DNA from: an archaeon
Lineage (GTDB): Archaea; Nanobdellota; Nanobdellia; Pacearchaeales; GW2011-AR1
Direction: 5' to 3'
Assembly (NCBI GenBank): GCA_043810775.1
Contig: JBDRNU010000015.1
Coordinates: forward strand, 64,001-128,000
DNA: 64,000 nucleotides
Shown one piece after another: positions 26,395 through 44,751 of the stretch. The first letter of the stretch is position 1, and each line of letters starts with the position of its first letter. Below the pieces are notes generated by a model. The model was not told the origin of the DNA, did no database searches, and saw only the letters and a program-made list of their open reading frames with translations. Position numbers and translations under genes: made by a program.

Positions 26395-28845
26395 CTAAGC
26401 TTCTGATGTAACTAAATCTGCAGATGTTGCAGAAGTACCCTTATATTTAGTACCTTCATCAGTTGTCACGGTTTGAGTTGTAACGTACTTAGCTGCATTT
26501 TGCGTATCTGCAGCCTCAAAACCAGCAACAAGCATTGCTACCTTATCAGCGTTGTAAGGTGATGCTGCTACTTCAATAAGGAATTCACCTGAAGCTACAC
26601 CAGTTTCAGTTGTCCAAGCTTCTCCACATATTGCAGATTCACTACCAAGCATTTTTGCGGCTGCTGCGTTTACACAGCTTCCACCAATAACAATCAGGTT
26701 CTTGCCTGAAACCTGGCTTACTTCACTGTCTGAGACAGTTACTGAACCAAGCTCACTTACTGAACCGCCAGTGCTTCCACTAGTTCCTCCACTAAGTGAT
26801 GCTGATGGTGATGCTAAGAAAACGTCTGCATACGATTGACTTCCAGCATAAGTTAAAGTTAACTTGTACTGGTCTCCTGATTTATCCCATTCAGCTAAGG
26901 TAGATAAATCAGATATGACATGACCCATATGATTGTCAGTGTCATCATCTTCAAACGTATTACCTCCAGACCACTCTGCTTGCACATTGCTTACATAAAC
27001 TTTGTTGTCTGTTGTGTCATCAAATGTAACATTAATAAGGTCTCCCTTAGCAATGTTTCCATCTTTGTCCTCTTCTTGTAAGCGTAGTGTATAAGTGTTA
27101 AATCCACAAGCTGCAGTACTCAACCATGCTCCTTTGTTAGTATCACTTGTATTAATAGCTCCATATCCACAAGAAGAATTAGCTTGTGTAAATGGTAACC
27201 AAATTACTAATCCACCTGCAGTGTAAAGTTGATGAAAGCTTCCACCTCCACCGACAGAAACATTTACCCATTTACTGTCCCCTAATTTTTCAATAGAGTT
27301 AACAGTTAAGACAACATTTCCTACATCACAAGTGTCACTTGCAGACAAGTCTGTACATATATTCTGACCTGTAACTTGGTCCTTAATAGTAGTCTTGTTT
27401 GCATTGTCCTTTGTGGTTACAGTTGCAGATAACAAGTGAGATTCACCCTCAGTTGTAGAGTTCCATGAAACTACAAATTGTTCGTCATTATTAGTGATAT
27501 TAAATAATATAGAATTGGCACTTGAAGTAACTAATTTGTTACTTGAGTCCTTTCCTATACCTCCAAAATCACCTGTAGAGTTTGCGTAAAGCAAATCTAT
27601 TGTAGCATCACCACTCTTTATTGGAGCTCTTAATTGAAGATAGTCATTTGCACCTGCTTTAATACTAACTTCTTCTGCTGCTGGAATAAAAAATTCACCC
27701 ATAGTGAACTTTACTGCTTCGAAACCAGGCATTGTAAGGTCAGTATCAGCTGCAATAAACTCTTCTTCATCTAAAGTCCAAACTATAACTATTTTGTCAA
27801 TAGTTTGTGCTCCTCCACTGGTTGATCCTCTGTCTATATAAGCTGTTAAGTCTTGGATGTCATCGTCATTTAGTTCAACTTTTTGGCCGTTTTCTAATAT
27901 AAGCTTTCCAGCTCCTATTGAAAACTCAACTGAACTAATACCTGTATCTTTGGCATTATACATAATGTCTTTGATACCCACATAACTACCATCTTTTAAC
28001 TTGTAAGTTCCACCTTCAGCCATAGAATTTGTGGATTCTCCATCAACACTTAACTTGACTTCTGTTGAACTAATAAACACTATCTGGACGTCATTATAAG
28101 TTTTACTGCCAGCAGTTACACTTATTGTTTCGCCCTCTGTTAGTTGTGCTGTATTAGCTGAGTCAAGGAAGGTCAACTTTATATTTGAGTTATTAAGTGC
28201 TGTAAGGATATAGTAACTCTTACCAAACATCTCAATATCTGTAGTTTCAAAATCATCTAAGTGAGTTGTAGTTACAGAAGTTGTTTGTGCATTGGTAATA
28301 AAGTCAAGTGTATAGTTAAGTATGTGTCTTCCTGATGCAATCTTCATACCTACAGTTGGTGTGTCTACTTTGTAGTCATCATCTGAAAAAAAGGACAAGT
28401 TTAGGTTTAGTCCTAGTTTTATTCTTTGTGTATATTTGTAGTCTGTATTGTCATCATTGGTATAAGTTCCATCAGCTAAAAGTACTGGTAAATGTTCGTC
28501 ACTCACTGTTGTAACAAATACATCTGCTACTGAGTCTCCCATATTAAGCCTATCGCTAGATCTGTCCAATCTGATAGAATCTCCACCAGATGCAACTACT
28601 CCACTAGCTGTGCTTCCGCCTTGAGCAGTTTGTGATGCTAGATGGAACTGTAAGTTCTGACCAACATCAACTGCAGCAGAAAGATCTGTTATAGCGGCAG
28701 TGGCTCCATGGACAATAGCGACATCAGCGCCTCCTCCTGATACAAAAGGGGCAGGGTAACTTGCAGCTGCTGCAATTCCAACAGTGCTTCCAAGCATTAC
28801 TACGCTCGCTACTACTGATGCGACTTTCCTGAAATTAAATTTCAT
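26395..28845 (-). CDS. Major S-layer protein (Methanococcales-type N- and C-terminal domains)
   Basis: N-terminal RKVAS...MLGST...YPAPFV..G...AIV.G...D and C-terminal NLIVIGGSCVN...LVAG..A.DT. Strong AAGGAGGT SD. Confidence 0.88.
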   Translation of the reverse strand: MKFNFRKVASVVASVVMLGSTVGIAAAASYPAPFVSGGGADVAIVHGATAAITDLSAAVDVGQNLQFHLASQTAQGGSTASGVVASGGDSIRLDRSSDRLNMGDSVADVFVTTVSDEHLPVLLADGTYTNDDNTDYKYTQRIKLGLNLNLSFFSDDDYKVDTPTVGMKIASGRHILNYTLDFITNAQTTSVTTTHLDDFETTDIEMFGKSYYILTALNNSNIKLTFLDSANTAQLTEGETISVTAGSKTYNDVQIVFISSTEVKLSVDGESTNSMAEGGTYKLKDGSYVGIKDIMYNAKDTGISSVEFSIGAGKLILENGQKVELNDDDIQDLTAYIDRGSTSGGAQTIDKIVIVWTLDEEEFIAADTDLTMPGFEAVKFTMGEFFIPAAEEVSIKAGANDYLQLRAPIKSGDATIDLLYANSTGDFGGIGKDSSNKLVTSSANSILFNITNNDEQFVVSWNSTTEGESHLLSATVTTKDNANKTTIKDQVTGQNICTDLSASDTCDVGNVVLTVNSIEKLGDSKWVNVSVGGGGSFHQLYTAGGLVIWLPFTQANSSCGYGAINTSDTNKGAWLSTAACGFNTYTLRLQEEDKDGNIAKGDLINVTFDDTTDNKVYVSNVQAEWSGGNTFEDDDTDNHMGHVISDLSTLAEWDKSGDQYKLTLTYAGSQSYADVFLASPSASLSGGTSGSTGGSVSELGSVTVSDSEVSQVSGKNLIVIGGSCVNAAAAKMLGSESAICGEAWTTETGVASGEFLIEVAASPYNADKVAMLVAGFEAADTQNAAKYVTTQTVTTDEGTKYKGTSATSADLVTSEA

Positions 28846-29233: not shown

Positions 29234-29590
29234 ATGGCAAAGAAAAGAACACGCACTGTAAATTTATATATAACTCCTACAACTTTCTCGTCGATATTTA
29301 AGCGCATTACTGGTGAAAAGCAAGAATTTGATTTTTCTGGTATAACTGAGCTTAGACAGTGTCTTTCTAATGAAAAGGCAAAGATCTTGCACGCAATTAA
29401 AGAAAAAGAACCTGATTCAATTTACCAGTTAGCTAAGCTTCTTAATCGTGATTTCAAGTCTGTTAATAATGATGTTAAGCTTCTTAAGAATTTTGGCTTT
29501 TTAGAGTTTAAATCTGAGTTTACTGGAAAGCGCAAAAAGCTTAAACCAGAAATAGCTATTGATTCTTTAAATGTGGTTATTAACTTTTAG
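29234..29590 (+). CDS. HVO_A0114-like wHTH transcriptional regulator
   Basis: LS.E...IL..I....P.SIY.LAK.L.RD.KSV..DV..L...G pattern. Confidence 0.75.
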   Translation: MAKKRTRTVNLYITPTTFSSIFKRITGEKQEFDFSGITELRQCLSNEKAKILHAIKEKEPDSIYQLAKLLNRDFKSVNNDVKLLKNFGFLEFKSEFTGKRKKLKPEIAIDSLNVVINF

Positions 29591-30134
29591 TGCATACTTG
29601 CATATCAGTAATTATATCTCCAGGTGACTTATGGATAATTCCACTAGCTCCAAGAATATTACCACTGCAGTTTCCTTGTTCAATGCTGACTAGTGGATAC
29701 TCGAACTGGTCTTCTCTATAATAAATATATACTTCATAGTATTTTGTAGGTACGTCTGGCCCTATAAGCCAGGTTTCTTCTAAAATACTAGAAAACTCCT
29801 CTTCAAGCACATCGCAAGAGTCTCTATCCCCTAAACACTCTTCACCATCATAGCATTTTTTAATAAGTTTTTCTATACTAAGATACTGGGGCTCAAACCC
29901 AACTGCGCATGCAGTAGTATACATTAAAGCAGAATCTAAGAATTTATCAATTTTTTCAGATTCACTTATTTTTACATCTTTTCTAATACTCATTCCCAAG
30001 AAAATAAGGGCAACTATACTAACTATCACTATAATTAGCACAAATCCTATCATCTCTTCTTGCGAGCGCTTGCACGAGACTAATTTATTAGATGAATAAC
30101 GAGCGCAGGCGCGAGTTGAGCATTTACTTTTCAT
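29580..30134 (-). CDS. Pilin-like protein (class III signal peptide-like)
   Basis: KRS/QEEMIGFVLIIVIV: basic residues, small residue, Q, then a hydrophobic helix. Several Cys. Confidence 0.6.
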   Translation of the reverse strand: MKSKCSTRACARYSSNKLVSCKRSQEEMIGFVLIIVIVSIVALIFLGMSIRKDVKISESEKIDKFLDSALMYTTACAVGFEPQYLSIEKLIKKCYDGEECLGDRDSCDVLEEEFSSILEETWLIGPDVPTKYYEVYIYYREDQFEYPLVSIEQGNCSGNILGASGIIHKSPGDIITDMQVCTKS

Positions 30135-30649
30135 TGTATTTCTACCTCATACCCTACTAATATCTTACCTATATCACATTTAGTGAAAATATAGCTTTCC
30201 TGGCTTTCTCTTCTGCATAAAGCTACAAAACTTTCTACTTTTCTCTCACTTTCAACCCTCTTATCATAAATCTTAAATAAATTACAGTTTGGGTAAGTTC
30301 CCATATCACACTCTATCTCACTAGTCTCTTGAGGGTAAACTTTTCTTATTTCAATGCTAGATATTGAACTAGGCCAAAAACCATTATAAATAGCCCTATC
30401 TTTAAGTAGAATCATTCTATCAAAATCCAAGCAATTCACCCCACAGCTAAATTCTGGAGAATTAGCAAGCATATTTACAAGCCTAATTGCCTCATTTTGA
30501 TCTAATAAGCTTGCTTTTTTATATAAGCTTGAAGTAGAGATTGTTAGATAGAATAATCCTGCAAGTATAAAAAATAACACAATAGCCATTAGCATGAAAG
30601 CCATTTGCTGTATTTTTAATTGCGAGCGTTTTTTTACACTAAATTCCAT
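30131..30649 (-). CDS. Pilin-like protein (class III signal peptide-like)
   Basis: KKRS/QLKIQQMAFMLMAIVLFF. ATG at 30649. Confidence 0.6.
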   Translation of the reverse strand: MEFSVKKRSQLKIQQMAFMLMAIVLFFILAGLFYLTISTSSLYKKASLLDQNEAIRLVNMLANSPEFSCGVNCLDFDRMILLKDRAIYNGFWPSSISSIEIRKVYPQETSEIECDMGTYPNCNLFKIYDKRVESERKVESFVALCRRESQESYIFTKCDIGKILVGYEVEIQ

Positions 30650-31599
30650 AATAAGCACTCTCCAAAACCAGCTTTTTCTTCAATTTCCAGTGATTTATCA
30701 TATACTCCTTGAGTTTTTAGGTCTTCTGAACTTTCAACAAGCTGGGCTTTTTGAGCTAAGACTAAAAAATCACTATATAATCCAGTATGACAATCCCTAC
30801 CTTCTAAAAAATTACTTTCTTCAGCATAAAGATAAGCTAATTGTTCTGCCCTTCCCATAAGTCTCTCTACATTACACTCATATATTTCTGGGCTAGAGAA
30901 AATAGCCGCATAAAGCAGGTTTTTGTAATAATATAACTGCTCCCTATCTTTAGTTACATAACCCTCATCATAACTATCTCCTATTTTTTCTACATTAATA
31001 TCACAATCTCTGCTCCTCATTCCATTCCCAAAACAAATCTTTTTACTGTCTTCTTGGCAGGTTGCATTAATCTCTACATTTCCTAGTATAATCAGATTAT
31101 CCTCAATTTCATTAGAGGGATTTTTAAAGCAGTATTTATCAGAATACATCATTGTCAGTGAAGCTACTTTATATCCTGTTTCAAAAGGCATTGAAAACAT
31201 ATAGACTTTCTTTCCCTGAACTTCATCAGAGAAAATATATTTATTTCTTAATCTTATTTCTCCCCCAGGTTCTTGCCATTCATCTCCAACTCCGCTTTTA
31301 GTTGAGAGTGAAAATTCCTGCCAGCCAAAAGTGCCTGTTTTTTCACACTCATTAAATATTTTAGTTTCAGAATTAAAACTAATATAAGCCGTCTTTTCAG
31401 CCTCAATACTTGTTTCAAGTGGAGAGAAAATTATGCTTAGTTTTTTTGCTGTTTCTGTGTCTATTTTATACTTACTAACATGAATAAATTGAGTAGTTGT
31501 ATAAATTGCAATTGCAATTATGAAAATTCCTGCCAAAATTGCAAATATAATTGAAAAACTAAATTCAAAACCTCTTTTATTAATCATTTTAAATCTCAT
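30634..31599 (-). CDS. Pilin-like protein (class III signal peptide-like)
   Basis: NKRG/FEFSFSIIFAILAG. Alternative start at 31587. Confidence 0.6.
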   Translation of the reverse strand: MRFKMINKRGFEFSFSIIFAILAGIFIIAIAIYTTTQFIHVSKYKIDTETAKKLSIIFSPLETSIEAEKTAYISFNSETKIFNECEKTGTFGWQEFSLSTKSGVGDEWQEPGGEIRLRNKYIFSDEVQGKKVYMFSMPFETGYKVASLTMMYSDKYCFKNPSNEIEDNLIILGNVEINATCQEDSKKICFGNGMRSRDCDINVEKIGDSYDEGYVTKDREQLYYYKNLLYAAIFSSPEIYECNVERLMGRAEQLAYLYAEESNFLEGRDCHTGLYSDFLVLAQKAQLVESSEDLKTQGVYDKSLEIEEKAGFGECLLWNLV

Positions 31600-31605
31600 C
31601 AGATG

Positions 31606-31684
31606 TCAGAAACTTTATGTTTCTGATCACTCTCAAGAACTTCTGTTCTTGAAGGTTTAAAAGACAGAAAATTATCAAATTTTC
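31606..31684. repeat. Cluster of three related palindromes (REP-like element)
   Basis: TCAGAAAC-5nt-GTTTCTGA, TCAAGAAC-4nt-GTTCTTGA and GAAAATT-4nt-AATTTTC. Confidence 0.6.
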
Positions 31685-31691
31685 CGTATTT

Positions 31692-32195
31692 TTAACAATC
31701 ACTGCCTATGCAAACTAATCTTTCATAATATCCTTTTTCAATTCTAAAACTAATTTTCGAATCAATATTTTCTATACAATATGGATTAAGCCTATTTGTA
31801 ATCTTGCTTATATTTATATCAGGAATATAATAATAAGGTAAGTTGCAAGCTTGTTCAGGAGGGTATAAGTAAACACTAGCTTCATAAATATCATATCTTT
31901 TCAATTCATCAAATATATCTTTTTTATTTGTAGAGGCTTTGCTAAAATCTACAAAGCATAAATAATCTATATCTTTTGGCATATATCCTGAGAATTCCTG
32001 GCTTGAAGAAGGAGACTTCCATACAATATCTACACTATCTTTTAAGTCACCCATATATGAGGCAATTTGAGTGCATTTCCTTAATTCAAGAAAATGATTA
32101 ATTGCAATAAATGCAATTATTACAAATAATACAATTAAGAATATGGAAAATATCATTCCAAATGGCAGTTGCATGTCGCCTCTTTTTCCTCTCAT
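31692..32195 (-). CDS. Pilin-like protein (class III signal peptide-like)
   Basis: GKRG/DMQLPFGMIFSIFLIVLFV followed by a Cys-containing globular domain. Confidence 0.62.
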   Translation of the reverse strand: MRGKRGDMQLPFGMIFSIFLIVLFVIIAFIAINHFLELRKCTQIASYMGDLKDSVDIVWKSPSSSQEFSGYMPKDIDYLCFVDFSKASTNKKDIFDELKRYDIYEASVYLYPPEQACNLPYYYIPDINISKITNRLNPYCIENIDSKISFRIEKGYYERLVCIGSDC

Positions 32196-32226
32196 TAAAT
32201 AATTAAGAAATTAGGTTATTTAAAAC

Positions 32227-35200
32227 CTACTCATTATATCCTCGGGCTATGATGCTGCATTCAGAAGGATTAGGCTGTTTTCCTGAAGTATCTCTACACT
32301 TTATATAATATGAGAAATCAGTATTCCACTCTGCATAGTGTTCAGTAGTATTTGAATAAGGCATTTGTATTCCTTCATTAAAATTAAAATTACAAGTACT
32401 AGTAGAGTATGAACAATCAGAATCTTCATCAGTAATAATCTTCAAGCAGCCAGCATTTCCGCATATTTTGCTAGGTCCTGTATCTTGGTAAACTCTGACT
32501 ACTGTAGGTGCTTCTCTGTCAACCTTAACTGTAAATTCAGTATCTGCAAAATCAGTATTTCCACCTAAATCAGTGCATTTAAAATAATAATGATAGTCTC
32601 CTTCCGGCAGGTCTTGTCTCTGTTGATGAGTATAATCCCTAGTATCAAAAAACATTATCCAGTCTTTTTCTTGTCCAGTTGTGCTATAAAAGCAAAATGC
32701 ATCTCCATCACAACAGCCATTGTCAGTTACAATTTCAAGATATACAGGGAAAATATCAGTTCCGCCTGAAATTGTTTCATTTGGCCCGTAGCTGAGTATA
32801 TCTAGTGGTTGTGTTCCTAGCAAGGTAAATTCAAAGCTTTGCCTGTTTTCATTTCTGTCACCTTCAGGCTTTCCAGGCTGGTCTTTGCATCTAAAGTAAA
32901 ATTTATTTTCAACCCTGTCTTGTATTCCAGTCAGAGTAGAAGAGCACTTATACAATAAATTAGCACCCATTTCCCAGACTCTAGTTGAGCATGCAAAGGA
33001 ATTTTCCATAACATCATAATCTTTGTTTTCTCTTGACCATTTGCATTCAGATGGTTCATTTACATAAAGTTCAAAATAAACCTGGCTAGTGTTGTAAGCA
33101 ACTGGCATTCCGCTAATTATGCTTGTATTATAAATTACTGGAGGAGTTAAATCTGGTCCAGCTTCTACACAGAATCTTATTGCAAATTCATCATCATTTA
33201 CATTTCCATTAGCGTCTTGGCATCTTGTATATAGTGTATAAGTTCCGTCTGGTTGTATAAGTGGATTTTCAGCTCCTTCCAATACACTTGCCCCCGGCAA
33301 GCTTAATCTTTGAGTATGATTATACAAGTATAAATTAGTTTCTCCAAAATAATAAGACATACTTTCAATATCTTTAGTGTGATTATAGTCAATCTTGCAC
33401 TGAGCAGGTTCATTTGTCATTAATCCAAATGTTATTGGTGTAAATGCCTTTATACAGCCGTCTCTAGTTTCTTGGCTTGTTATTTGCATTCCAATTGAAG
33501 GTGGTCTTGTATCTACATTAGTATAGCTATGGTCTAAGCTTAGTGCATCTTCCCATGGAGTTATTGTTGGGCTATTTACATCATGAGGATTTATCCAGAC
33601 ACAGGACTCATTTCCAATGCTTCCTGCATTTAACAGTTCGCAAGCCTGCCCTAATGACTTGCATCTATATTCTGAGCAAGGTCTAAATGGGTCGCCATTG
33701 CATTCCTCGCAATTATGCCCTCCTACTGGGGCTTCCCATGTCTCGCATGTAAATATTACCTTCTTTTGAGTTACCTCTTCATATAAAATTATAAAGACTA
33801 TTATTCCTATTGCTATTCCTGCTATTGCTCCTCCTGCGCTTAACTGCCCTATTCCTAATCCTCCTTGTGACCACCCCCCACTACCAGCTAAAGGACTTGA
33901 TAAAAGCCTCGCACTAAACCCGGCTGCAAATCCAGCTGCTCCTAATGCCTTGCTCATCTCTTCACTTGCCCCCATCATACTTGCCCCCATATAAAGCAGT
34001 CCTCCAACAAACATCCCCCATCCCAATGATGCTACAAGAACTCCTCCAGCGGTCCCTGGTTGTACTAAATTACCTAGTCCTCCACCTGTATTTGCTGGTG
34101 ATGTTTGAGATGCAGGACCTGGTGTTGTTGAAGGTGCTGTAGTTACACTTCCTTCTGCGATAATTTTATTTTCCCCAAATGTCACTTTATCAGCAGTAAT
34201 AGCTACTCCACCCCCATCAGCCCCTTTCACACCCCCTACCCCAAACACCAACCCAACCAATCCTCCCACCCCACCGCTCAACAACCTGACAGCAGGCAGG
34301 ATAAAATCAGTCTTTATCTTTGAAATTTTCAAATCATAACCCTCATCATAGCCATCCTCTCCCAAATAATTAACCTTGCCATCGCAGTCTCCCATGCTTG
34401 CACATAATTCCTTCATCTGATTCTGCCAGCTCTCATCAAGGCACTCACAATTTTTAGTGCAGTCTTCATCACTATAAATTTTCTTTTCAAATTCAACAAC
34501 ACAAACAGCACTAGCTTGCGAGCAAACTCCCTGAGCATCTCCTTTAGTGCTGTAAAAATCCAATCCAGGCGAATAACTTGGAACACAGCTCATATTTTTT
34601 CCTGCAATGCTTCCTATCCACTCGCAATCTCTTTTATCAGTATTTTCACAATCATCTTGCTCACCCTGAAATATACAATCCTGCCACCTATTAGCAACAC
34701 ACCCAGCTTGTGAGAACAACCCATGGTCAGTTTCAATTCCGCCCTGCCAGCAAACTTCTTGTCTAAAATCAGCGCACGGCTCTACAATCTCTTCATTAGA
34801 AATACAAATATGTCTCCACTCTCTAGCTCCAACAGCATTAGCATCTTCATCACCTACACTAGTCGCTGTACCATCATACATGCACCATGACTCTCCGTGA
34901 TTAAAATCCTGCCCATTATAAGTTTTCTCGCAATCTAAATCTCTGCAAATGCTCTCTCCATAGCTAGGTCTAGTGCTATCTTGGCTTCTGTCATAAGCTC
35001 TGCAAATACTTCCATAAAAATAATCACAATTTCCGCATCCAGCAGAATTAGCATTCGCACTTCCAGCTCCACAGCTCTCATCCTTGCTGTAAACTTTTTT
35101 CCAGTATAAGTCATCATTTATTTTGCTAGCATCATAAATATTAGCAGGATTTCCGCAAGTATCAATAAAATAAACCTCATCTAATCCAGAAACACAAATA

Positions 35201-35877
35201 GTCTCACTTGATTTCCCGCAATTAGTAGCAAGCTCTTCAGCTGAGCAAAGCCAGTCTTTATGAAAAGTAATATTTCCAGTAACAGTTCCTTCATCAGAAC
35301 CAACTAAACCTTCATCACACTGCTGTCTAGTAACAAATTTGCAGCTCCGGATATAATCTGTTTCATATACGCAAGCTCCCTTATCCTGGCTGTGAGCCAT
35401 TTCAATACAAGCATCTTCATCCTGAACATTAGTTCTAAAATTAGTATTTAATCCATAAAATGCGCTTATTCTTTTGCATCTAGTTAAAGTTACTAAAGCC
35501 GCCTCATTAGCAAGAATACAACAACCTAATTCACACTGTGCAATATTACAATCTTTTCCTTCAGACCAGGTGCCATTTTTTTCAATGCAAACTCTTTCAG
35601 GAGTATTTTCCATGCATAGTCCTTCCTTGCCATCATAACAGCATCCCTCTCTGCAAAAAGAAGTAGCATCACAGCTTGTAGGGCTACTCCTATAATTAGA
35701 ATTGCAGCTTGCACTTTCAGAATTCTGGCACCAAGCTCCATAGCTTGTTTTTTCACAGCATACACTAGTTTCTTGAGCGCTTACAACTGCAAAACCAGAA
35801 CTTAATATATAAGCAATTGCAAAAATACTAATTACTAGTAAGCAAATTTCACTAATTGAATAAAATTTCTTCATCAT
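32227..35877 (-). CDS. Giant Cys-rich secreted/membrane protein A with central Gly-rich hydrophobic core and C-terminal Ig-like domains
   Basis: Signal peptide ending VSA/Q, dozens of Cys, and a hydrophobic Gly-rich block. D.T.P motifs start beta domains. Paralog of 37316..41074. Confidence 0.75.
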   Translation of the reverse strand: MMKKFYSISEICLLVISIFAIAYILSSGFAVVSAQETSVCCEKTSYGAWCQNSESASCNSNYRSSPTSCDATSFCREGCCYDGKEGLCMENTPERVCIEKNGTWSEGKDCNIAQCELGCCILANEAALVTLTRCKRISAFYGLNTNFRTNVQDEDACIEMAHSQDKGACVYETDYIRSCKFVTRQQCDEGLVGSDEGTVTGNITFHKDWLCSAEELATNCGKSSETICVSGLDEVYFIDTCGNPANIYDASKINDDLYWKKVYSKDESCGAGSANANSAGCGNCDYFYGSICRAYDRSQDSTRPSYGESICRDLDCEKTYNGQDFNHGESWCMYDGTATSVGDEDANAVGAREWRHICISNEEIVEPCADFRQEVCWQGGIETDHGLFSQAGCVANRWQDCIFQGEQDDCENTDKRDCEWIGSIAGKNMSCVPSYSPGLDFYSTKGDAQGVCSQASAVCVVEFEKKIYSDEDCTKNCECLDESWQNQMKELCASMGDCDGKVNYLGEDGYDEGYDLKISKIKTDFILPAVRLLSGGVGGLVGLVFGVGGVKGADGGGVAITADKVTFGENKIIAEGSVTTAPSTTPGPASQTSPANTGGGLGNLVQPGTAGGVLVASLGWGMFVGGLLYMGASMMGASEEMSKALGAAGFAAGFSARLLSSPLAGSGGWSQGGLGIGQLSAGGAIAGIAIGIIVFIILYEEVTQKKVIFTCETWEAPVGGHNCEECNGDPFRPCSEYRCKSLGQACELLNAGSIGNESCVWINPHDVNSPTITPWEDALSLDHSYTNVDTRPPSIGMQITSQETRDGCIKAFTPITFGLMTNEPAQCKIDYNHTKDIESMSYYFGETNLYLYNHTQRLSLPGASVLEGAENPLIQPDGTYTLYTRCQDANGNVNDDEFAIRFCVEAGPDLTPPVIYNTSIISGMPVAYNTSQVYFELYVNEPSECKWSRENKDYDVMENSFACSTRVWEMGANLLYKCSSTLTGIQDRVENKFYFRCKDQPGKPEGDRNENRQSFEFTLLGTQPLDILSYGPNETISGGTDIFPVYLEIVTDNGCCDGDAFCFYSTTGQEKDWIMFFDTRDYTHQQRQDLPEGDYHYYFKCTDLGGNTDFADTEFTVKVDREAPTVVRVYQDTGPSKICGNAGCLKIITDEDSDCSYSTSTCNFNFNEGIQMPYSNTTEHYAEWNTDFSYYIKCRDTSGKQPNPSECSIIARGYNE

Positions 35878-35878
35878 C

Positions 35879-36655
35879 TTATTTTATTGTACCAGTGCTA
35901 TATCCTGGAGGCCAGCTCAAGCTTCTAGTGGCAAATATAAATTTTTCTTCTGTAATTCTGTCAGTTAAAACATAAATCTTGCTTCCATCAGACTGCTTGT
36001 ATTTTTCAACTTTCAAGTCAGGATAATATAACATATAAGTAAGAGGGTCAGAATCTCCTAATCTAGCTTCATAGTTTAGTATTGATGTAGAAATCATAAC
36101 TAAATCATATAATCCAGAGTCTAATGAAAATTTAATAGTTTCATAAGTATCACTTACACCCTCTCTTTTGTTTAGCACCATATTCATGTTAATATCAAAT
36201 ATAATCCTATCAGGAATAAATTCAACATTTAATTCATTATTTCCTAAAGCAACAATATACCCCTGCTTCTCCATTTGCTTTTTCAAGCTTAAAGCACACT
36301 CTCTAGTTACTTGCTGAAGTTCAGCTTCCAGCTCCTCTTCAATATGCTGTTTAAGAAGTGGTTGCTGCATTGTGCAAGTATCATAATACTCATTAGTATA
36401 GCATAAATAATCAACATCATAACCCTCATACCAGATGCTATTTTCCGGAGAAAAACTCCCACCTTTTTTAGTTAAAATATCTAGTTTATCTTCGGCAATA
36501 TCTTCTACACAACCCTTCATATAAGCATTAGGTTCAGTTGGCCCAAATACTACTGATTCAATCCTAGGCCAGAATAAAACTATTAATACAGAAACTATAA
36601 GTATAGCTATAATTACAAATATGGTAATTTGCGCCCTCTTTTTTAAACTATGCAT
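35879..36655 (-). CDS. Pilin-like protein (KKRA/QITIFVII), paralog 1
   Basis: Class III signal-like N-terminus. GG...P, YLCY...Y..C..Q.P and F.FA motifs are shared with 41078..41848. Confidence 0.7.
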   Translation of the reverse strand: MHSLKKRAQITIFVIIAILIVSVLIVLFWPRIESVVFGPTEPNAYMKGCVEDIAEDKLDILTKKGGSFSPENSIWYEGYDVDYLCYTNEYYDTCTMQQPLLKQHIEEELEAELQQVTRECALSLKKQMEKQGYIVALGNNELNVEFIPDRIIFDINMNMVLNKREGVSDTYETIKFSLDSGLYDLVMISTSILNYEARLGDSDPLTYMLYYPDLKVEKYKQSDGSKIYVLTDRITEEKFIFATRSLSWPPGYSTGTIK

Positions 36656-36744
36656 GTTTTTTCAACGCGAGCTATATTTATAAAGTTTATTAAAGCAAAT
36701 AACTCAAGAATAAATTTAAATACTTCAGTTCAAAGTTCCTATTA

Positions 36745-37323
36745 ATGGATCAATCAACAGAAACTGAAGTCAGAAATTTTGAACTATATAGTGCTCTTCA
36801 GGCAAGTCCTCACTCTAATCAAGGTCAGATTGATAGGGCATATAAAAGGCAAATTGAATTTCTTCAAGCTAAGCTGGAAAATTATGAAATAACAAAGGTT
36901 AATTTAATTGCAAGAGCTGATAAAAGAGACCCAATTGACAGAGTTGAATTAATAGCTGAACTTGCACAAGCTCGTCTTGAAATTCAAAATTTTCATACAG
37001 CAGTTGAACAGGCTAATCATACTTTATCTAATCCTGTAAGGCGTGCAATATATGATTGTACTGGAGAATATGATAAAATTTTTCCACATGAATGCAAACA
37101 TAGAATATTTCAACCCCAAGAACAGCATGATATCCCTAACTTAAGAGAAATTCAGGAGCAAATTATGGCAGGAAAAATTAGACATGTTTTTTATTCAGGT
37201 CCAGAAGGAACTAGCATGGGTTTTGAAAGTTTTTTGAGTCAATCTCCTTTTTTAGATTTATCTTTTATGGAAAAAATATTATCTGAAAGAATGAAAAGAG
37301 GATTTAAAGATTTTTTTAATTAA
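36745..37323 (+). CDS. Degenerate J-domain-like protein lacking HPD
   Basis: LY..L.......I.RAYK and A...LSNP.RRA.YD..GE match J-domain helices. The HPD loop is replaced by a long helical insert. Confidence 0.55.
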   Translation: MDQSTETEVRNFELYSALQASPHSNQGQIDRAYKRQIEFLQAKLENYEITKVNLIARADKRDPIDRVELIAELAQARLEIQNFHTAVEQANHTLSNPVRRAIYDCTGEYDKIFPHECKHRIFQPQEQHDIPNLREIQEQIMAGKIRHVFYSGPEGTSMGFESFLSQSPFLDLSFMEKILSERMKRGFKDFFN

Positions 37324-40300
37324 TATCAACTGCCCTTGTTTTAATGCTGCATCCCCCAGGCTCATTATTGAAAATATCTCTGCACTTAATGTGGTAAGTA
37401 TAATCTATCTGCCATCCAGTAGTATGGAACCTGTCACTTCCACTCATCCTCTCACCTTCATTAAAATCAAAATAGCAAGTATCAGTTGAATAAGCACAAG
37501 TAGATGGCTCTTCAGTTTCTACTACTAAACTTCCACCATCATGATAAACTCTGGTAATTACAGGATATCTGTTATCTACACTAATCTTAAAATCAGTTGA
37601 ATAATTTGCTTCATTTTCAGCTACATCCTTGCAATTTATTTTGTAATTATAACTTCCTGCATACATTGTAGTCAGCGTTGAGCTATGATAATTGTCAAAA
37701 GTTTCCCTAAACCTGTCATTCCATCCATATGGTCCAAGTTTCCATCTGCATTCAGATTTTCCATCTTCAGCTCCTCCACTAGTATAAGTTTCTAGCTTAA
37801 TGCTAACTGGTTCAAATCCAAAAATAGCCTCTCCACTTGGATAAGCTCCTTCTACTTTTAATGGAGATAAGCTTGGATACAGCGAATAAGGATAAGCTTG
37901 GGTGTTTGCGTTTCTTTTGCTTTCATTTTCTCCAGCATACCAAGGCTGGTCTTTGCATTTGAAATAAAATTCATTTTCTTCAAGAGTAGTATTCAGCTTT
38001 AAAGCAGTGTCGCAATTAAATCCCCATACAGTTGGTGTTTCAAATACATCAGCTGAAGGGCAAGTAAATTCTCCTTCCATTAGCTCATAATCTATGAATT
38101 CTTTAGTGCTCCATCTGCAAGTCACTGGCTCATTTACATAAATTGTAATATTTTTTTCACTGGAATTATATTTAGTGTAGGCATAATCTTCTGGAATTGT
38201 TTTTTGAATTCTGGGAGCAGTTAAATCAGGCCCTGGCTTTACACAGAAATTAATAACATAGTCAGCTGGAGTCCAGGCTCCCCAGTCATCCTGACATTTT
38301 ACATAGAGGTTATAGTCTGCAACTCTGTTAGGGTCAAATCCATGAGCTCCTAATGCATCAGGGCTTGGCAGATTAATGCTCGTTGAGTGATTTCTCAAGT
38401 ATAAATTTCTATTGTTGAAAAATTGAGGCATATTTTCATAAGGCATTATTCCTGGTTCTAGTGAATACTTGCACTGTCCTAGCTCATCTAATGAAATTCC
38501 AAATTGCACATTAGTCCATGCTTGTATGCATCTTCCGTCTTGTTGCCTTACTTTATAGCCATTGTTGGAAACTTCTGTATAAGTATAATTTTCAGTTACA
38601 ATATTATACCAGGGTGAAATTTGTGGAGGAATTGCATCTTGCTTGCTTGCCTCACATATTTCAGCTTCACTTCCCTCATTAAAAAAGTGGCAGGCAGCTC
38701 CCAAGCTTGAGCATCTGTATTTTGAGCATGGATGCATAGGATTATCGTCGCAATTTCCGCAATCAGAGCCGCCAACAGGCGGCTGCCATGGCATGCAGTT
38801 AAATGATACTGTATGCTCTTTTGTATCTCCTATTCCGAGAAGTTTTGTAACTATTGCTACTATAATTATAAATAATATTGCTAATGGGCAAAGAATACCA
38901 GTAGAGCACAATGTCATAATTCCTACTTGCATATATGCAGCAACAGCTCCAACCACTAATCCTGCAACAGCTCCTGCAATAGTGACAATTAATAATCCCT
39001 CTCCCTCCAATCCAAACATTTTTCCAATCATCATTCCTATCATTGCACCAACTGCAACTCCTATAGCTATATTTGCAAATCCTGCAAAAAACCCAAATGA
39101 TTGCGAACCTGATATAACTCCTGACGCCGTTTCAGTAATTACTATTCCTTTAGTAAGTGAATATGAAACCACTAAACCATCAGTAAGCGCTGCTGTTGTT
39201 ATCATTCCAACAGCCCCCACACCATAAGCCCCTGTTGTTCCCAGCATAAATTTATACATTGCATCAGAATAATCAGCTTCTTCATATTCATCTAACTCCC
39301 CAATTCCCAAGAAACCATAAAAACTGCTGATATCTCTTGCATCAGCAAACTGCCCTTCAATTGGTTCAGCATATTTCTCAAATTTTTCCAAATCAGATTT
39401 TTCTAATCTAGGAGCTCCAGTTACAGAATATCCTCCATCTGTAACTTCTCCCTCAATATTAACATAAGCTCCGCAATCTCCAAGCGAAACACAATAATTA
39501 TTCATTTTTTCTGCAAATTCCTTGCTTTGGCAATCACAATTAAACTCGCACTCCCATCCATCAACATGCTTTACCTCAACCCAAGTGCAATCAAGGCTTG
39601 CTCTTCCACATATAGTTGAAGCAACATCATATCCTTTTTCACTCTGAAAATCAAAACCAGGAGAATACTTTGGAACACATAAATCAAAGCTATAATCAGA
39701 GTCAATGTCAATTTTCTGCACTCTGCACACAAAATTCTTTTCGCACTTGTCAGTTTCAACTTCCTTATTATAACTTAGGCATTCTTGCCATGGATTTATC
39801 ATGCAAGAAGCTGTAGAAAATTTTTCTCCACTAGAGTCATCAACTATAATATCACTCTGAACACATATTTCAGTTCTATAATCCCCGCAAGGGTCAATCT
39901 TAACCTCCCCATTCTGGCAATAGTGCTTCCAGTGTCTCGAGCCTACTACATCAGTTGAAAATAAATTATCCTCTCCATCTATTATTTGAACAGCAGCTAC
40001 ATTAGGAATATCTTCTGATTTTGATTCACTTTCTCCAATACTTCCATCATACACACACCACGACTCTCCATTTCTTCTTGCATTTCCTTTTTCATCAATA
40101 CAATCCATATCTCTACAAATATACTCTCCTTCTGCAGGTGTAACTCCAGAACCCTCAGCCCCCCCACATATACTTCCTAACATATAAAAACAGTTTCCAC
40201 AGCTAAGTGAATTCGCATTGCCATTAGCATTAGTAGGATTACAACTTTCATTTTTTTCTAACACCCACCCATTATTCCAGCTTGCATCTCTATCAGAATC

Positions 40301-41074
40301 ATAAATATTTTCCATATTTCCACAAGAATCAAACCAATAAACCTCATTATACTTATTTTTATTATCAGCACATCCAGTGCTTGCCTGTCTTGTGCAGTTT
40401 GTTTCTAATTCAGAATTTGAACATAATACATCTTCATGAAACTCTCCACCACTACTCTGGCACTCTTGCTGAGAAATAAATTCGCAATTATTTTCATCTT
40501 CACCATAATAAACACAAGCTCCAGTTGAAGTAGTTGAAGCAAGAGCAATACACTCTATCTCATAAATAACATCTGGTCTGAAGTCAAAATCAAAACCATA
40601 ATAATCAGCAAGATAATTACATCTATCTCTAGTAACAAACTGAGTCTCATCTCCTAAAACACAGCAAGCCTTCTGGCATTCTGCAATATTGCAAGCAGGT
40701 TCATCAAACCATTGTCCTCCATCTTGTTCGCATTTAGCTTTTGGCGAGTTGCTTGCACAAGTTCCTTGATAGCTATCAAAGCAGCATCCATAATCACAGT
40801 TAGTAGTATCTTCACAAAATCCAGGGAAACACCCACTAAATCCTCCCTGGCACTGCCCTCCACACTGCTCCCAGACCATTTCCTGGCATATGCTATTATT
40901 ATTAGTAACTTCACAGCATTGTGGAGTTAATGGTTGTGCTTCAACCACTTTAATTTCATCTGTGATAATTCCAACTAAATAGCAAAATGCAAAAATAGCA
41001 ATTACTAAGTTTAGTATCTGAAAATAGCTAATTCTAGCTTTTCTGCCCAAAACCTCTTTTTTATTTATTTTCAT
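37316..41074 (-). CDS. Giant Cys-rich secreted/membrane protein B with central Gly-rich hydrophobic core and C-terminal Ig-like domains
   Basis: Shares GESWC.YDG, PC.D.R.E.C, C.S.GDC...VN..G, PCS.YRC.SLG.AC, GPDLT.P and FYF.CKDQP with 32227..35877. Confidence 0.75.
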   Translation of the reverse strand: MKINKKEVLGRKARISYFQILNLVIAIFAFCYLVGIITDEIKVVEAQPLTPQCCEVTNNNSICQEMVWEQCGGQCQGGFSGCFPGFCEDTTNCDYGCCFDSYQGTCASNSPKAKCEQDGGQWFDEPACNIAECQKACCVLGDETQFVTRDRCNYLADYYGFDFDFRPDVIYEIECIALASTTSTGACVYYGEDENNCEFISQQECQSSGGEFHEDVLCSNSELETNCTRQASTGCADNKNKYNEVYWFDSCGNMENIYDSDRDASWNNGWVLEKNESCNPTNANGNANSLSCGNCFYMLGSICGGAEGSGVTPAEGEYICRDMDCIDEKGNARRNGESWCVYDGSIGESESKSEDIPNVAAVQIIDGEDNLFSTDVVGSRHWKHYCQNGEVKIDPCGDYRTEICVQSDIIVDDSSGEKFSTASCMINPWQECLSYNKEVETDKCEKNFVCRVQKIDIDSDYSFDLCVPKYSPGFDFQSEKGYDVASTICGRASLDCTWVEVKHVDGWECEFNCDCQSKEFAEKMNNYCVSLGDCGAYVNIEGEVTDGGYSVTGAPRLEKSDLEKFEKYAEPIEGQFADARDISSFYGFLGIGELDEYEEADYSDAMYKFMLGTTGAYGVGAVGMITTAALTDGLVVSYSLTKGIVITETASGVISGSQSFGFFAGFANIAIGVAVGAMIGMMIGKMFGLEGEGLLIVTIAGAVAGLVVGAVAAYMQVGIMTLCSTGILCPLAILFIIIVAIVTKLLGIGDTKEHTVSFNCMPWQPPVGGSDCGNCDDNPMHPCSKYRCSSLGAACHFFNEGSEAEICEASKQDAIPPQISPWYNIVTENYTYTEVSNNGYKVRQQDGRCIQAWTNVQFGISLDELGQCKYSLEPGIMPYENMPQFFNNRNLYLRNHSTSINLPSPDALGAHGFDPNRVADYNLYVKCQDDWGAWTPADYVINFCVKPGPDLTAPRIQKTIPEDYAYTKYNSSEKNITIYVNEPVTCRWSTKEFIDYELMEGEFTCPSADVFETPTVWGFNCDTALKLNTTLEENEFYFKCKDQPWYAGENESKRNANTQAYPYSLYPSLSPLKVEGAYPSGEAIFGFEPVSIKLETYTSGGAEDGKSECRWKLGPYGWNDRFRETFDNYHSSTLTTMYAGSYNYKINCKDVAENEANYSTDFKISVDNRYPVITRVYHDGGSLVVETEEPSTCAYSTDTCYFDFNEGERMSGSDRFHTTGWQIDYTYHIKCRDIFNNEPGGCSIKTRAVDIN

Positions 41075-41077
41075 TGT

Positions 41078-41848
41078 TTAAAATCCTGCTGGAATTATGC
41101 ATCCTCTTACAGCAAATTTCAGTCTATCTTTAGTATATTTATCTTCAACTACATAAATTTTTGCAGCATTTTCATTTCCACCATGAGTATATCTTTCAAC
41201 ATAAACTTCAGGATATAGCAAGCTGTATCCAATATACTCAAAATGGCAGTACTTCGCTTCCTGGTCAACAATTTCTACAGCTATACTAGCCAAATCATAA
41301 AGCGGAGTAGCTATTACTAGCTTAAATTCATCATATTTTTTTTCTTCACCCTTTCCAGAAATTTCAATAGTTCTGTCAATATCAACTTCTAATTTCCTTG
41401 AAGACAGTTCACAATTTACTTGCATAGCACCCCTGTCTTCTAGCACAATATCAAAACCCTTTTTTTCATACTCTTCTTTAAAAGCTTCAAAACAAGAATT
41501 AATTTTATCTTCTGAATTATCAGTAATTTCATTTTCAAGATGCTTGAAATACATTGGCTCCTGGTTTACACAAGGATAATAATAATTCATATTATAGCAC
41601 AAATAAGCAATTTTATTTCCTTCAAATAGCTTATAATTTTCAGGCTCTAAATATCCTCCTTGAGCAAGCATCTTTTGAATTACACTTTCTTCAAAACACT
41701 CAGTCAAATAAGCTTGAGGCTCAGGAAGCTTAGCTGGTCTAAAATTAATAATAGTATCTCCTCTTAAAATCATATAAAAAACAATTGAAACTAGTATAAT
41801 AATTCCTATAATTACAAATATAGTGATTTGCGCCCTCTTTTTTAACAT
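41078..41848 (-). CDS. Pilin-like protein (KKRA/QITIFVII), paralog 2
   Basis: Class III signal-like N-terminus. Paralog of 35879..36655. Confidence 0.7.
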   Translation of the reverse strand: MLKKRAQITIFVIIGIIILVSIVFYMILRGDTIINFRPAKLPEPQAYLTECFEESVIQKMLAQGGYLEPENYKLFEGNKIAYLCYNMNYYYPCVNQEPMYFKHLENEITDNSEDKINSCFEAFKEEYEKKGFDIVLEDRGAMQVNCELSSRKLEVDIDRTIEISGKGEEKKYDEFKLVIATPLYDLASIAVEIVDQEAKYCHFEYIGYSLLYPEVYVERYTHGGNENAAKIYVVEDKYTKDRLKFAVRGCIIPAGF

Positions 41849-42727: not shown

Positions 42728-43981
42728 ATGGGAGAAGATATAACTAATATAACCCCTACTTATTACTCTAGAAAAGATATACAAGAAGCAATTTTCAGCT
42801 TTTGTAATGGGAGAGAAGTAGTCCCAAGTTATAAAATGGAAAGTTTTGGAAAGCGTCCAGACACTTTGGAGTATCCTTCTGATATAATGCATCACGTCAA
42901 AAAAGGAGCAACTTCTTTGCACTGCTCAGAGGAAATCTGGAAAGATCCCTTGCAACTTTCCACATCCCTATCAGAAGACCAGCTTAATGATTTAAGGCAG
43001 GGTTGGGATTTACTAATAGACATTGATAGTAAATACCTAGATTATAGTAAGATTTCTGCAGAACTAATAATTGAAGCCCTAAACTTTCATGGAGTTAAAA
43101 ATATTGGATTAAAATATTCAGGAAGTAAAGGTTTCCATATCATAGTGCCTTGGAAATCCTTTCCAAAAGAAATTAATTCCCAAAAAATGAGCTATAAATT
43201 CCCAGAAATTCCAAGAATAATCTCTATTTATCTGTCAAATTTTATAAAGCCCAAACTAGCTGAAAAAGTAGCCCATCTTACAATGGAAGATAAAAAATCA
43301 TATGTCCGTGATTTTGATGCGCATAAAAAAGTAATGCCAGATATAATTTTAGTTTCCTCAAGACACTTATTTCGCTGCCCTTATTCACTTCATGAAAAAA
43401 CAAAACTTGCAAGCATAGTTTTGGAAAAAGATGAGCTAGCTGATTTTAATCCAAGAAGCGCAGATCCTCTAAAAGTTAAGGTAAAAGAATTTTATCCTAA
43501 AGCTCGCGATGAAGAAGCTCGCGAATTGTTAATTCAAGCACTAGACTGGAATCAAGAAAACAAGCAGGAAGAAAGCAAGGAAAAATTATCGGAAAAACGA
43601 AGAACAAAAACCTTTCAGAAAATTGAAGTAGATAAAAGCTCAGTTATATATCCTCCTTCAATTAAAAAAATATTACTAGGTTTGCAAGACGGAAGAAAGC
43701 GAGCCTTATTTATTTTAATAAATTACTTTCGTTCTCTTGGTTTTGAGCAAAGCGAAGTTCAGGAAAAAATTGAGTCTTGGAATAAGAAAAATAAGCCTCC
43801 TTTAAAAGAGGGGTATATTAAATCACAGTTTGCTTGGACTTTTCGCCAAAAGCAAATACTACCTCCTAACTATGATAAGGATTTTTATAAAGGGATAGGA
43901 ATTATCCCAGATGATGAGGAAATTAAATTAAAAAATCCTGTGAATTATACTATAAAAAAATCAAAATGGCGCAAGAAATAA
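42728..43981 (+). CDS. Fused archaeo-eukaryotic primase (PriS catalytic domain plus PriL-CTD/PriX-like domain)
   Basis: AEP motifs WDLLIDID, SGSKGFH and D....RHLFR.PYSLH. C-terminal PP.I...L.GL.DGRKR.LF.L domain. Confidence 0.88.
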   Translation: MGEDITNITPTYYSRKDIQEAIFSFCNGREVVPSYKMESFGKRPDTLEYPSDIMHHVKKGATSLHCSEEIWKDPLQLSTSLSEDQLNDLRQGWDLLIDIDSKYLDYSKISAELIIEALNFHGVKNIGLKYSGSKGFHIIVPWKSFPKEINSQKMSYKFPEIPRIISIYLSNFIKPKLAEKVAHLTMEDKKSYVRDFDAHKKVMPDIILVSSRHLFRCPYSLHEKTKLASIVLEKDELADFNPRSADPLKVKVKEFYPKARDEEARELLIQALDWNQENKQEESKEKLSEKRRTKTFQKIEVDKSSVIYPPSIKKILLGLQDGRKRALFILINYFRSLGFEQSEVQEKIESWNKKNKPPLKEGYIKSQFAWTFRQKQILPPNYDKDFYKGIGIIPDDEEIKLKNPVNYTIKKSKWRKK

Positions 43982-44751
43982 TTAATGTTACAGATATAAC
44001 TGAATATCTATTTTGTCCAAGAAAAGTATATTTAAGGCTAGTTAAAAAAGTAAGATTTCCTCCAAATCAGGCAATGATTAAAGGTCAGCTTAAACATAGA
44101 GTTTTTGATACCTTCAATAAAAATGAGCCAGTTATAGTATCCTCAATTGAATCAGTCCTTTCTGAAAGAGAAATAATTAATCTTTATAAAACTGAACTCT
44201 TAAAAATAATTCAGGAAATTCAGGTTGTAAATTCAAATCAGTTTTTAATGTTTAAAATTGACAAGAGAGAATTTTCAGACTCAATTAATAAACTAATTGG
44301 AAAAGAAATAAACTTGAGGGCAGGCTCAGTTCTTCAAACTCTAAAAAAAGGTTTTCTTGGAAAAGAACTCTGGAGAAACCTAGCTCCTAAATATTTGTCT
44401 GAATTTAAGATAATTTCAGAAAATATAGGTTTAAGGGGAAAAATAGATAGGGTAAAATTTGAATCTAGTATAACTCCTTATGAAATTAAAACACGTGCAG
44501 GAATATATGATTCAGATAAAATACAGCTAGCAGCCTATGCCTTACTGCTCGAAGAGGAATTTAATAAAAAAATTGAAAAAGGATTCATTGAACATTTGGA
44601 AGGAAGTGAAGAGATTCTACTCACTGAAGAATTAAAAAACAAAGTCTTAGAAATAGCTGATAAAATAAGAAAAATGAAAGACTCTCCTGAAATGCCTTCT
44701 AATTTTAATAAATGTAATTCATGTTTTTTTAAAAATAAGTGTTTTGAGTAA
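43966..44751 (+). CDS. Stand-alone Cas4/Dna2-like PD-(D/E)xK nuclease with four-Cys Fe-S staple
   Basis: FCPRK, G.ID, EIK, QL.AY and C..C.....C motifs. No cas1 or array in the window. Confidence 0.85.
   Translation: MAQEIINVTDITEYLFCPRKVYLRLVKKVRFPPNQAMIKGQLKHRVFDTFNKNEPVIVSSIESVLSEREIINLYKTELLKIIQEIQVVNSNQFLMFKIDKREFSDSINKLIGKEINLRAGSVLQTLKKGFLGKELWRNLAPKYLSEFKIISENIGLRGKIDRVKFESSITPYEIKTRAGIYDSDKIQLAAYALLLEEEFNKKIEKGFIEHLEGSEEILLTEELKNKVLEIADKIRKMKDSPEMPSNFNKCNSCFFKNKCFE

Follow-up and report, generated by a model that had tools for sequence, protein, structure and literature searches.

We describe a cluster of eight genes that occupies ~12 kb (29580 to 41848) of a 64,000-nucleotide (nt) stretch in the genome of a groundwater archaeon of the Pacearchaeales, contig C15:64001-128000. 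We call this whole stretch the window and give its positions counted from its first letter. The cluster encodes two giant cysteine (Cys)-rich proteins, each directly preceded by a small pilin-like gene whose product we call its carrier, and four further small proteins. We tentatively read it as a pilin-anchored surface complex for cell contact, a function that we infer from the tight pairing of carriers with giants, the conservation of their leaders and gene order, and the recurrence of carriers upstream of other exported proteins. The source genome is 995 kb in 26 contigs with ~31% G+C and is 80% complete, so that the cluster amounts to ~1.2% of a 1-Mb genome. A preliminary description of this DNA had reported eight co-oriented minus-strand genes here, and we found each open reading frame (ORF) at its exact coordinates. 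The genes and the domains of the giants are as follows, with sizes in amino acids (aa) and a slash at the predicted leader cleavage site.

41078..41848, minus: carrier B, pilin-like, 256 aa; leader MLKKRA/QITIFVII; its stop codon lies 3 nt before giant B
37316..41074, minus: giant B, 1252 aa; Sec-type signal, 71 Cys
39440-40936, minus (~residues 47-545): giant B Cys-rich N-domain
38816-39439, minus (~residues 546-753): giant B Gly/Ala-rich hydrophobic center
37319-38815, minus (~residues 754-1252): giant B C-domain
35879..36655, minus: carrier A, pilin-like, 258 aa; leader MHSLKKRA/QITIFVII; its stop codon lies 1 nt before giant A
32227..35877, minus: giant A, 1216 aa; 71 Cys
35776-35877, minus (residues 1-34): giant A Sec-type signal peptide
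34318-35775, minus (residues 35-520): giant A Cys-rich N-domain, with no internal repeats
33766-34317, minus (residues 521-704): giant A Gly/Ala-rich hydrophobic center
33508-33765, minus (residues 705-790): giant A seven-Cys knot
32230-33507, minus (residues 791-1216): giant A, four homologous ~100-aa immunoglobulin (Ig)-like repeats
31692..32195, minus: small membrane-anchored protein, 167 aa; leader MRGKRG/D; hydrophobic helix at residues 14-32; class III status doubtful
30634..31599, minus: pilin-like protein, 321 aa; leader NKRG/FEFSF
30131..30658, minus: pilin-like protein, 175 aa; leader KKRS/QLKIQQM; overlaps its neighbors by 25 and 4 nt
29580..30134, minus: pilin-like protein, 184 aa; 24-residue leader ending KRS/QEEMIGF, with no alternative start codon closer to the motif

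A class III signal consists of a short basic leader, a lysine or arginine followed by a small residue, and then ~20 hydrophobic residues. We found that all six small proteins have the leader motif followed by one strongly hydrophobic 19-residue stretch, as had been proposed. Among relatives, the prepilin-type motif was conserved in five of the six families; the claim of six class III-like leaders did not hold up for the 167-aa protein.

Carrier A family: [KR][GAS] in 60 of 66 homologues; Q at +1 in 66 of 66
Carrier B family: [KR][GAS] in 42 of 47 homologues; Q at +1 in 46 of 47
321-aa family: [KR][GA] in 23 of 27 homologues; +1 hydrophobic (F/I/L/V); F at +5 in 27 of 27
175-aa family: [KR][GAS] in 25 of 27 homologues; Q at +1 in 27 of 27
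184-aa family: [KR][GAS] in 24 of 26 homologues; Q at +1, E at +3, and G at +6 each in 26 of 26
167-aa family: [KR][GAS] in 10 of 30 homologues; no other clear conserved position

Judged by the motif, five of the families look like prepilin peptidase substrates whose cleavage can be predicted, and the 167-aa protein may simply be held by a signal anchor. Carriers A and B are 32% identical (E = 4e-36) and contain four conserved Cys, and one source labels a carrier homologue "UPF0333 family," which we take to be a class III signal family. We modeled carrier A with AlphaFold2 from 113 aligned sequences (pLDDT 93.7, pTM 0.83). The model has a helix at residues 6-36, a break, a second helix at residues 42-63, and then an alpha/beta domain of three helix-sheet units. 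An ESM Atlas search with carrier A returned only unnamed Nanobdellota clusters.

The two giants proved to be paralogous from end to end, in agreement with the earlier account, with 425 identities in 1298 positions (33%) and 71 Cys each (5.8% and 5.7% of residues). Across 22 full-length family members, ~70 Cys are invariant. In both giants, the two large domains are separated by hydrophobic segments of the membrane-spanning type; this center shows a varying number of hydropathy peaks (1 to 5), one of which always lies ~12 residues before the C-domain. The giants probably stay in the cell's own membrane. Both large domains would lie outside the cell, which is supported by the conserved Cys and by two conserved N-X-S/T sequons in the C-domain (118 of 121 and 100 of 121 sequences). 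In the giant A C-domain, repeats D2 to D5 are interrelated (hhalign probability, 80 to 96%), and each repeat ends in Y-x-[YF]-x-C-x-D-x-x-G-N. None of the eight cluster proteins passed a Pfam or NCBIfam cut-off. The nearest match was Big_13 in giant A, at 26.5 bits versus a cut-off of 27, and among the 22 giant homologues weak matches to Big_13 and Y_Y_Y occurred in 14 and 7, respectively. Profile and atlas searches found no known relatives of the Cys-rich N-domain, the Cys knot, or the hydrophobic center: the N-domain had no usable named match in the ESM Atlas, and the best profile matches among PDB sequences were nonsignificant (E = 0.69; the hydrophobic region of the type III secretion translocator AopB and a PKD domain). 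A profile search with the N-domain gave 1,728 representatives at the 50% identity level, 1,055 of them at an E value of ≤1e-30. The best 150 of the 1,728 were either 324 to 808 aa long, lacking the C-half and in some cases truncated, or 1,001 to 1,501 aa long.

Giant A is split into N-half and C-half ORFs in 49 loci, and giant B was never seen split. In the two such loci that we inspected, unrelated genes lie between the halves, and beyond its signal peptide the N-half lacks an anchor. From this arrangement, the two halves probably work together, and the N-half probably needs something that holds it. Between the halves, one locus (L038:11494-13065) encodes a membrane protein of several spans and a small lipoprotein-like ORF, and the other (L054:16746-21578) has several cytoplasmic-looking genes.

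We searched for the giant family among 8000 scored candidates (cut-off, E ≤ 0.001) and obtained 687 matches, among which every name given was "hypothetical," from metagenome-assembled genomes (MAGs) of Nanoarchaeota, Pacearchaeota, or Woesearchaeota. A relative is encoded in 508 of 591 candidate stretches, taking one genome per species. For a survey of neighborhoods by ORF calling and phmmer, 78 loci were kept, many of them cut by contig ends. The gene order recurs in these relatives: primase (minus strand), PCNA (plus strand), carrier B, giant B, carrier A, giant A, the 167-, 321-, 175-, and 184-aa genes, a helix-turn-helix (HTH) gene (minus strand), and an S-layer gene. Two consecutive pilin-plus-giant modules are present in 41 of the 78 loci, and the four small genes stand in order, with the 167-aa gene first, in 24. 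In 22 of these 24 (22 of 78 overall), the HTH gene and then the S-layer gene follow, and of the 39 loci with PCNA, 32 have it immediately before the first carrier.

Giants had been described as lying 1 to 3 nt behind a pilin-like gene, and the gaps in the window are indeed 1 nt and 3 nt. Outside this genome, we counted 122 giant genes preceded by ≥1 kb of sequence, and in 106 cases a pilin-like ORF lies upstream, ending within -120 to +700 nt and mostly at -25, -4, or +1. Adjacent carrier-giant pairs were type concordant (A with A, B with B) in 99 of 110 cases, which bears out the proposal that the pair was duplicated as a unit. These pair and order counts describe a pattern and are not a statistical test, since related genomes are not independent; the adjacency of pilin and giant is far beyond chance.

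We also scored a 401-genome sample of the phylum for the giants (E ≤ 1e-10). A match was present in 142 genomes, with some weak single matches that possibly reflect the Ig repeats only. In three families other than that of the source genome, the giants occurred in 9 of 10, 11 of 12, and 14 of 15 genomes, and they were nearly absent from three large families (1 of 42, 1 of 29, and 0 of 13). The cluster is surrounded by core genes, namely, those for FtsZ, SepF, ribosomal protein L11, a PACE-type surface protein, PCNA, and primase. It is part of the core genome, lineage-wide in Pacearchaeota and Woesearchaeota, and not an accessory device. We rejected a mobile or viral origin, as the cluster is flanked by core genes and keeps its syntenic position from genome to genome. 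Among the sequencing runs listed as matching the stretch, none was RNA; they were groundwater metagenome DNA runs with at most 0.26 of the sampled words.

As had been stated, the window has no assembly ATPase, platform, or prepilin peptidase gene. Contig C15 contains no T2SSE ATPase, T2SSF platform, or Peptidase_A24 match, and such matches were found only on C3, C5, C7, and C20. The genome-wide check that had been called for showed that both a prepilin peptidase and assembly ATPases are present on other contigs. The genome encodes three T2SSE-type ATPases (C7, C3, and C20), two T2SSF matches each on C3 and C7, in separate frames and beside an ATPase, and a single Peptidase_A24 gene (prepilin peptidase) on C5. 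A motif scan of all ORFs in the genome gave 65 loose class III-like candidates, and 13 ORFs combine the strict motif [KR][GAS]Q with a hydrophobic helix. Four of these 13 are in the cluster, 2 are carrier paralogues, 6 lie beside type IV filament (T4F) genes on C3, C5, and C7, and 1 is elsewhere. Because strict-motif ORFs adjoin T4F genes and two pilins of the C3 locus pass the Pilin_N cut-off (31.5 and 29 bits), the genome has ordinary T4F loci, with this motif marking their substrates. Peptidase_A24 was found in 138 of the 142 giant-positive genomes and in 387 of all 401; because the peptidase is nearly universal, its co-occurrence with the giants does not discriminate.

Carriers are not confined to the giants. 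The carrier family has two further members in this genome, on C11 and C23. At C23:7140-14541 (L090:641-8042), a 641-aa carrier homologue with the leader KRS/QITVFVII overlaps the gene for an 1829-aa signal-bearing protein. The first ~300 residues of the 641-aa protein are carrier-like (29% identity to carrier B over 216 aa; E = 5e-7), and the 1829-aa exported protein ends in Amidase_3 (E = 2.3e-48), an N-acetylmuramoyl-L-alanine amidase domain that acts on peptidoglycan. The presence of a murein hydrolase in an archaeon hints that its partners or prey may be bacteria. The C11 member, a 274-aa paralogue on the minus strand (C11:1-822), runs off the end of the contig and is incomplete. Beside both carrier copies lie similar small genes resembling those of zinc-ribbon ribosomal proteins, together with the gene that follows (C11:1088-2051 and C23:4714-5670); this likeness could mean that a segment was duplicated or that the bin contains two strains.

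In the related loci, we found 18 further weak carrier-family ORFs in 13 loci, and 11 of the 18 are followed within a few nt by Sec-signal-bearing ORFs of 580 to 726 aa. Loci with such an extra carrier and its cargo are as follows.

L010:16056-21300: extra carrier plus cargo
L051:13935-16839: extra carrier plus cargo
L058:3650-6548: extra carrier plus cargo
L011, L035, L069, L072, and L076: extra carrier plus cargo

The cargo proteins have an N-terminal part in common, and the C-terminal ends of the 11 that we scanned include two trypsin-like domains and one thioredoxin domain; by eye, one cargo protein has an HExxH motif. A common N-terminal part joined to differing C-terminal domains recalls the layout of polymorphic effectors. 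Carriers thus appear to partner exported proteins in general, and some of these proteins seem to act on material that the archaeon itself does not possess. Seven longer proteins (605 to 808 aa) include five full-length orthologues of the 641-aa C23 carrier (39 to 49% identity) and two distant relatives (21 to 23%). None of the seven is a carrier-giant fusion, which is weak evidence.

Based on these observations, we propose the following model. The single PibD-type peptidase of the genome would cut five, perhaps six, of the small proteins after [KR][GAS]. Their N-terminal helices would then hold them in the membrane or pack into a short stub resembling a type IV filament, which may be assembled by either of the two Epd-like ATPase/platform loci that the genome has on other contigs. 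Each ~257-aa carrier would be made together with the Sec-exported protein encoded 1 to 3 nt downstream and would hold it at the cell surface. Here, the partners would be the two ancient paralogous giants, each with a disulfide-rich head of ~480 aa, a membrane segment that is hydrophobic and rich in glycine, a Cys knot, and four Ig-like repeats. The assembly may project through or beside the S-layer and mediate contact with another cell, most likely a host. A host-directed role is favored, indirectly, by the sister modules with an amidase giant or with exported proteins tipped with a protease or thioredoxin domain.

Several of our results weigh against this model. With 1 to 5 predicted membrane segments, the giants cannot simply ride on a filament tip, so the pilus-tip complex that the preliminary description had pictured is unlikely. 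The gene neighborhoods point the same way: within ~10 kb in the 78 related loci, we found no homologue of a T4F ATPase, platform, or peptidase, and only two ~90-aa fragments matched weakly (E, 1e-6 to 1e-7). Lysine and arginine are commoner after the last membrane segment of the giants than before it (2.57 versus 1.05), and by the positive-inside rule this speaks weakly against an outside C-domain. The giants occur in 26 of 27 genomes of the source genome's own family, and their gene cluster has a core position beside the S-layer gene, ftsZ, and sepF; both facts are as compatible with a housekeeping role in the envelope as with host contact. As described above, the motif of the 167-aa protein is poorly conserved.

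The canonical pilin fold that had been expected did not emerge either, since no solved pilin is a convincing match for the carrier A model. A Foldseek search of the PDB found nothing significant (TM, ~0.1), and VIA-align against 48,161 chains gave no Z score of ≥8. The best VIA-align score was 6.6, to unrelated proteins, and the scores for a pseudopilin (4.9) and a minor pilin (4.7) came from residues 181-249 alone. With Pilin_N, we obtained matches below the cut-off for 2 of 113 carriers (best E = 0.016) and no match for 85 small proteins. The 12 other pilin-like candidates beside T4F genes of this genome also fail the cut-off that the two C3 pilins pass, and we therefore consider the curated pilin models insensitive. 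Between the six small families, we detected no relationship of the globular parts (hhalign probability, <4%), nor any to pilins of the T4F loci: hidden Markov models of these families gave only 12- to 15-bit matches to 21 other pilin-like candidates of the genome. The preliminary description had named the lack of a pilin fold, of machinery, or of synteny as grounds for giving up its interpretation, and we did not clearly find any of the three.

The main rival to a contact complex is a housekeeping scaffold of the envelope or S-layer, in which the small proteins would be peptidase-processed anchors that form no filament and the giants would anchor, space, or organize the S-layer. We consider this explanation rather unlikely, but much of the evidence fits it. 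The S-layer-like gene follows the cluster in nearly all loci with the four small genes in order (22 of 24), and its 816-aa product has no C-terminal hydrophobic anchor in its sequence, so a partner is needed. The setting among the genes for FtsZ, SepF, PCNA, and primase, the near-universal presence of the giants in the source genome's family, their membrane segments, and the absence of a nearby ATPase in the 78 loci are also what a scaffold would lead one to expect. However, large families of the same class do without the giants, so there is no general envelope requirement for them. In addition, the sister modules pair the carrier family with enzymes aimed at foreign material (peptidoglycan amidase and trypsin-like proteases), and the N-half of split giant A is unanchored in the loci inspected; both speak against a scaffold. 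A variant is a secretion or display system, in which a pseudopilus like that of type II secretion would push or present Sec-exported cargo through the S-layer, with a dedicated carrier pilin for each. The carrier gene lies directly upstream of each cargo gene in the window, on C23, and in relatives; the cargo proteins have a common N-terminal part, and recognizable enzyme domains lie at the C-terminal ends of 3 of the 11 that we scanned; and four differing small pilin-like genes recall the four minor pseudopilins of bacterial systems. Yet the giants of the window contain membrane segments and so would not be released, and no ATPase or platform gene is linked to them; we consider this variant improbable as an account of the cluster.

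The small proteins might also have nothing to do with pilins, their leaders serving, uncleaved, as the ordinary signal anchors of type II membrane proteins and resembling class III signals incidentally. This would agree with the lack of any matched Pfam or NCBIfam pilin family, with the fold of the carrier A model, with the unconserved motif of the 167-aa protein, and with the lack of assembly genes nearby. An uncleaved anchor, however, gives no reason for glutamine at +1 in 66 of 66, 46 of 47, 27 of 27, and 26 of 26 homologues, or for a small residue at -1 after lysine or arginine. Moreover, six of the nine instances of the strict motif outside the cluster lie beside T4F ATPase, platform, or peptidase genes, and the UPF0333 label of a carrier homologue, presumably denoting a class III signal family, argues in the same direction. 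We regard this explanation as very unlikely.

A broader form of the contact hypothesis is that the cluster belongs to an organelle of an undescribed kind in Pacearchaeota and Woesearchaeota, built on the principle of a carrier pilin plus cargo. Each carrier of a lineage-wide prepilin-type family would dock one Sec-exported partner. The giants would make up a permanent structure for contact or a channel, with glycine-rich hydrophobic segments that might span a membrane, possibly that of the partner cell, and the sister modules would deliver enzyme-tipped cargo against the host envelope. Such an apparatus for attachment and feeding may run without the classic pilus motor. We think it a long shot, and the pilin-anchored contact complex remains our preferred reading.

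Three further features adjoin or interrupt the cluster.

36745..37323, plus: ORF of 192 aa on the opposite strand, within the 660 nt that separate giant B from carrier A
29234..29590, plus: divergent winged-helix (HTH) protein, 118 aa; Pfam HVO_A0114, E = 2.9e-18
26395..28845, minus: S-layer-like protein, 816 aa; Pfam S_layer_C, 25.3 bits versus a cut-off of 23.9

The 192-aa ORF interrupts the array, so the pilin-giant series is not seamless. It has a weak DnaJ match, below the cut-off, and no counterpart in any of the 78 related loci. It is probably outside the system and may be a recent insertion or a non-gene. The winged-helix gene is a candidate regulator of either side. Between the S-layer-like gene and a small multidrug-export gene lie two unnamed minus-strand ORFs of 231 and 190 aa (25031-26300), the 190-aa one with a single hydrophobic helix. 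The cell division genes for FtsZ and SepF (17282-18379 and 21265-21645) are ~10 kb from the cluster, and the PACE-type surface protein (22323-23951) is encoded in the same core region. On the other side, a Cas4/PD-(D/E)XK nuclease gene with Dna2-like matches (43966-44751, plus strand) directly follows the primase gene.

The Pacearchaeota and Woesearchaeota, which are abundant and uncultured, have minimal genomes and probably live attached to other cells. In a preprint, Pacearchaeota were enriched on a >2.5-μm filter fraction, which the authors read as strong host attachment; the same source states that DPANN archaea lack components of type IV pili (10.1101/2020.05.14.094862). The latter statement does not fit our finding of a prepilin peptidase in 387 of 401 genomes. 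What is new here is that relatives of the carrier family lie directly upstream of genes for other exported proteins, with amidase, trypsin-like, and thioredoxin domains. If the cluster does encode a contact apparatus, its proteins would be concrete targets for labeling in cryo-electron tomography, for proteomics, and for host prediction in DPANN enrichments, and the sister module with the amidase would suggest that the partners are bacteria.

The preliminary description knew of no characterized system with this architecture, and our literature searches agree: we found no published description of the cluster, although supplementary files could hold one. It is not mentioned in the main text of PMC13705601 or described in the accessible text of PMC9938205 or of the preprint cited above. 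The nearest archaeal system is T4F system 1, the Epd pilus of Methanococcus maripaludis. According to the portions of PMC13705601 available, it has one ATPase and two platform genes, with further Epd pilins in a locus separate from the ATPase, and system 1-type pilins occur in 1990 Nanobdellati genomes, where T4F genes are scattered. The cluster resembles this system, as far as the available text describes it, in its class III-type leaders, its many differing pilin-like proteins, and its adhesin-like accessory proteins. Furthermore, C3 and C7 of our genome each have one T2SSE and two T2SSF matches with pilin-like ORFs beside them. In contrast, none of the eight cluster proteins matches a described pilin family, and the available text describes no Epd locus with ~1,200-aa Cys-rich membrane proteins paired one to one with pilin-like genes. 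That source also mentions PilY.

Bacterial systems offer partial parallels. The type IVa priming complex combines the minor pilins FimU and PilVWX with the ~1,100-aa PilY1, which is thought to be adhesive, and like our cluster it encodes several small pilin-like proteins together with a very large surface protein. However, the PilY1/PilC beta-propeller domain has no Pfam match in either giant or in the 22 homologues. Unlike PilY1, the giants have membrane segments and two Cys-rich ectodomains, with a C-domain of four Ig-like repeats; here there is one carrier per giant, with the pair duplicated, and the organism is an archaeon with an S-layer and no secretin. In type IVb pili and type II secretion, a minor pilin has a secreted partner (TcpB/TcpF and CofB/CofJ), and there are minor pseudopilins GspH to GspK. 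Here too, a pilin-like protein appears dedicated to a Sec-exported partner, and four unlike small ones stand in fixed order. The likeness does not extend to sequence or fold (pseudopilin EpsI reached a VIA-align Z of 4.9 over 62 residues), and in the cluster the assembly genes are unlinked and the partners are membrane embedded.

The Sulfolobus bindosome (Bas) uses substrate-binding proteins with class III signals. It shares with the cluster the use of prepilin-type leaders on surface proteins other than classic long pili, in the S-layer region, and it differs in that the partners in the cluster are not solute-binding proteins. Adhesins with Big_13/HYR-type repeats resemble the C-domain of the giants, with its four homologous ~100-aa repeats, but the giants score at or below the cut-off, and the rest of each giant is without known relatives. 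Taken together, these comparisons place the cluster with T4F-related surface systems that have accessory adhesins, as a member built wholly from undescribed protein families.

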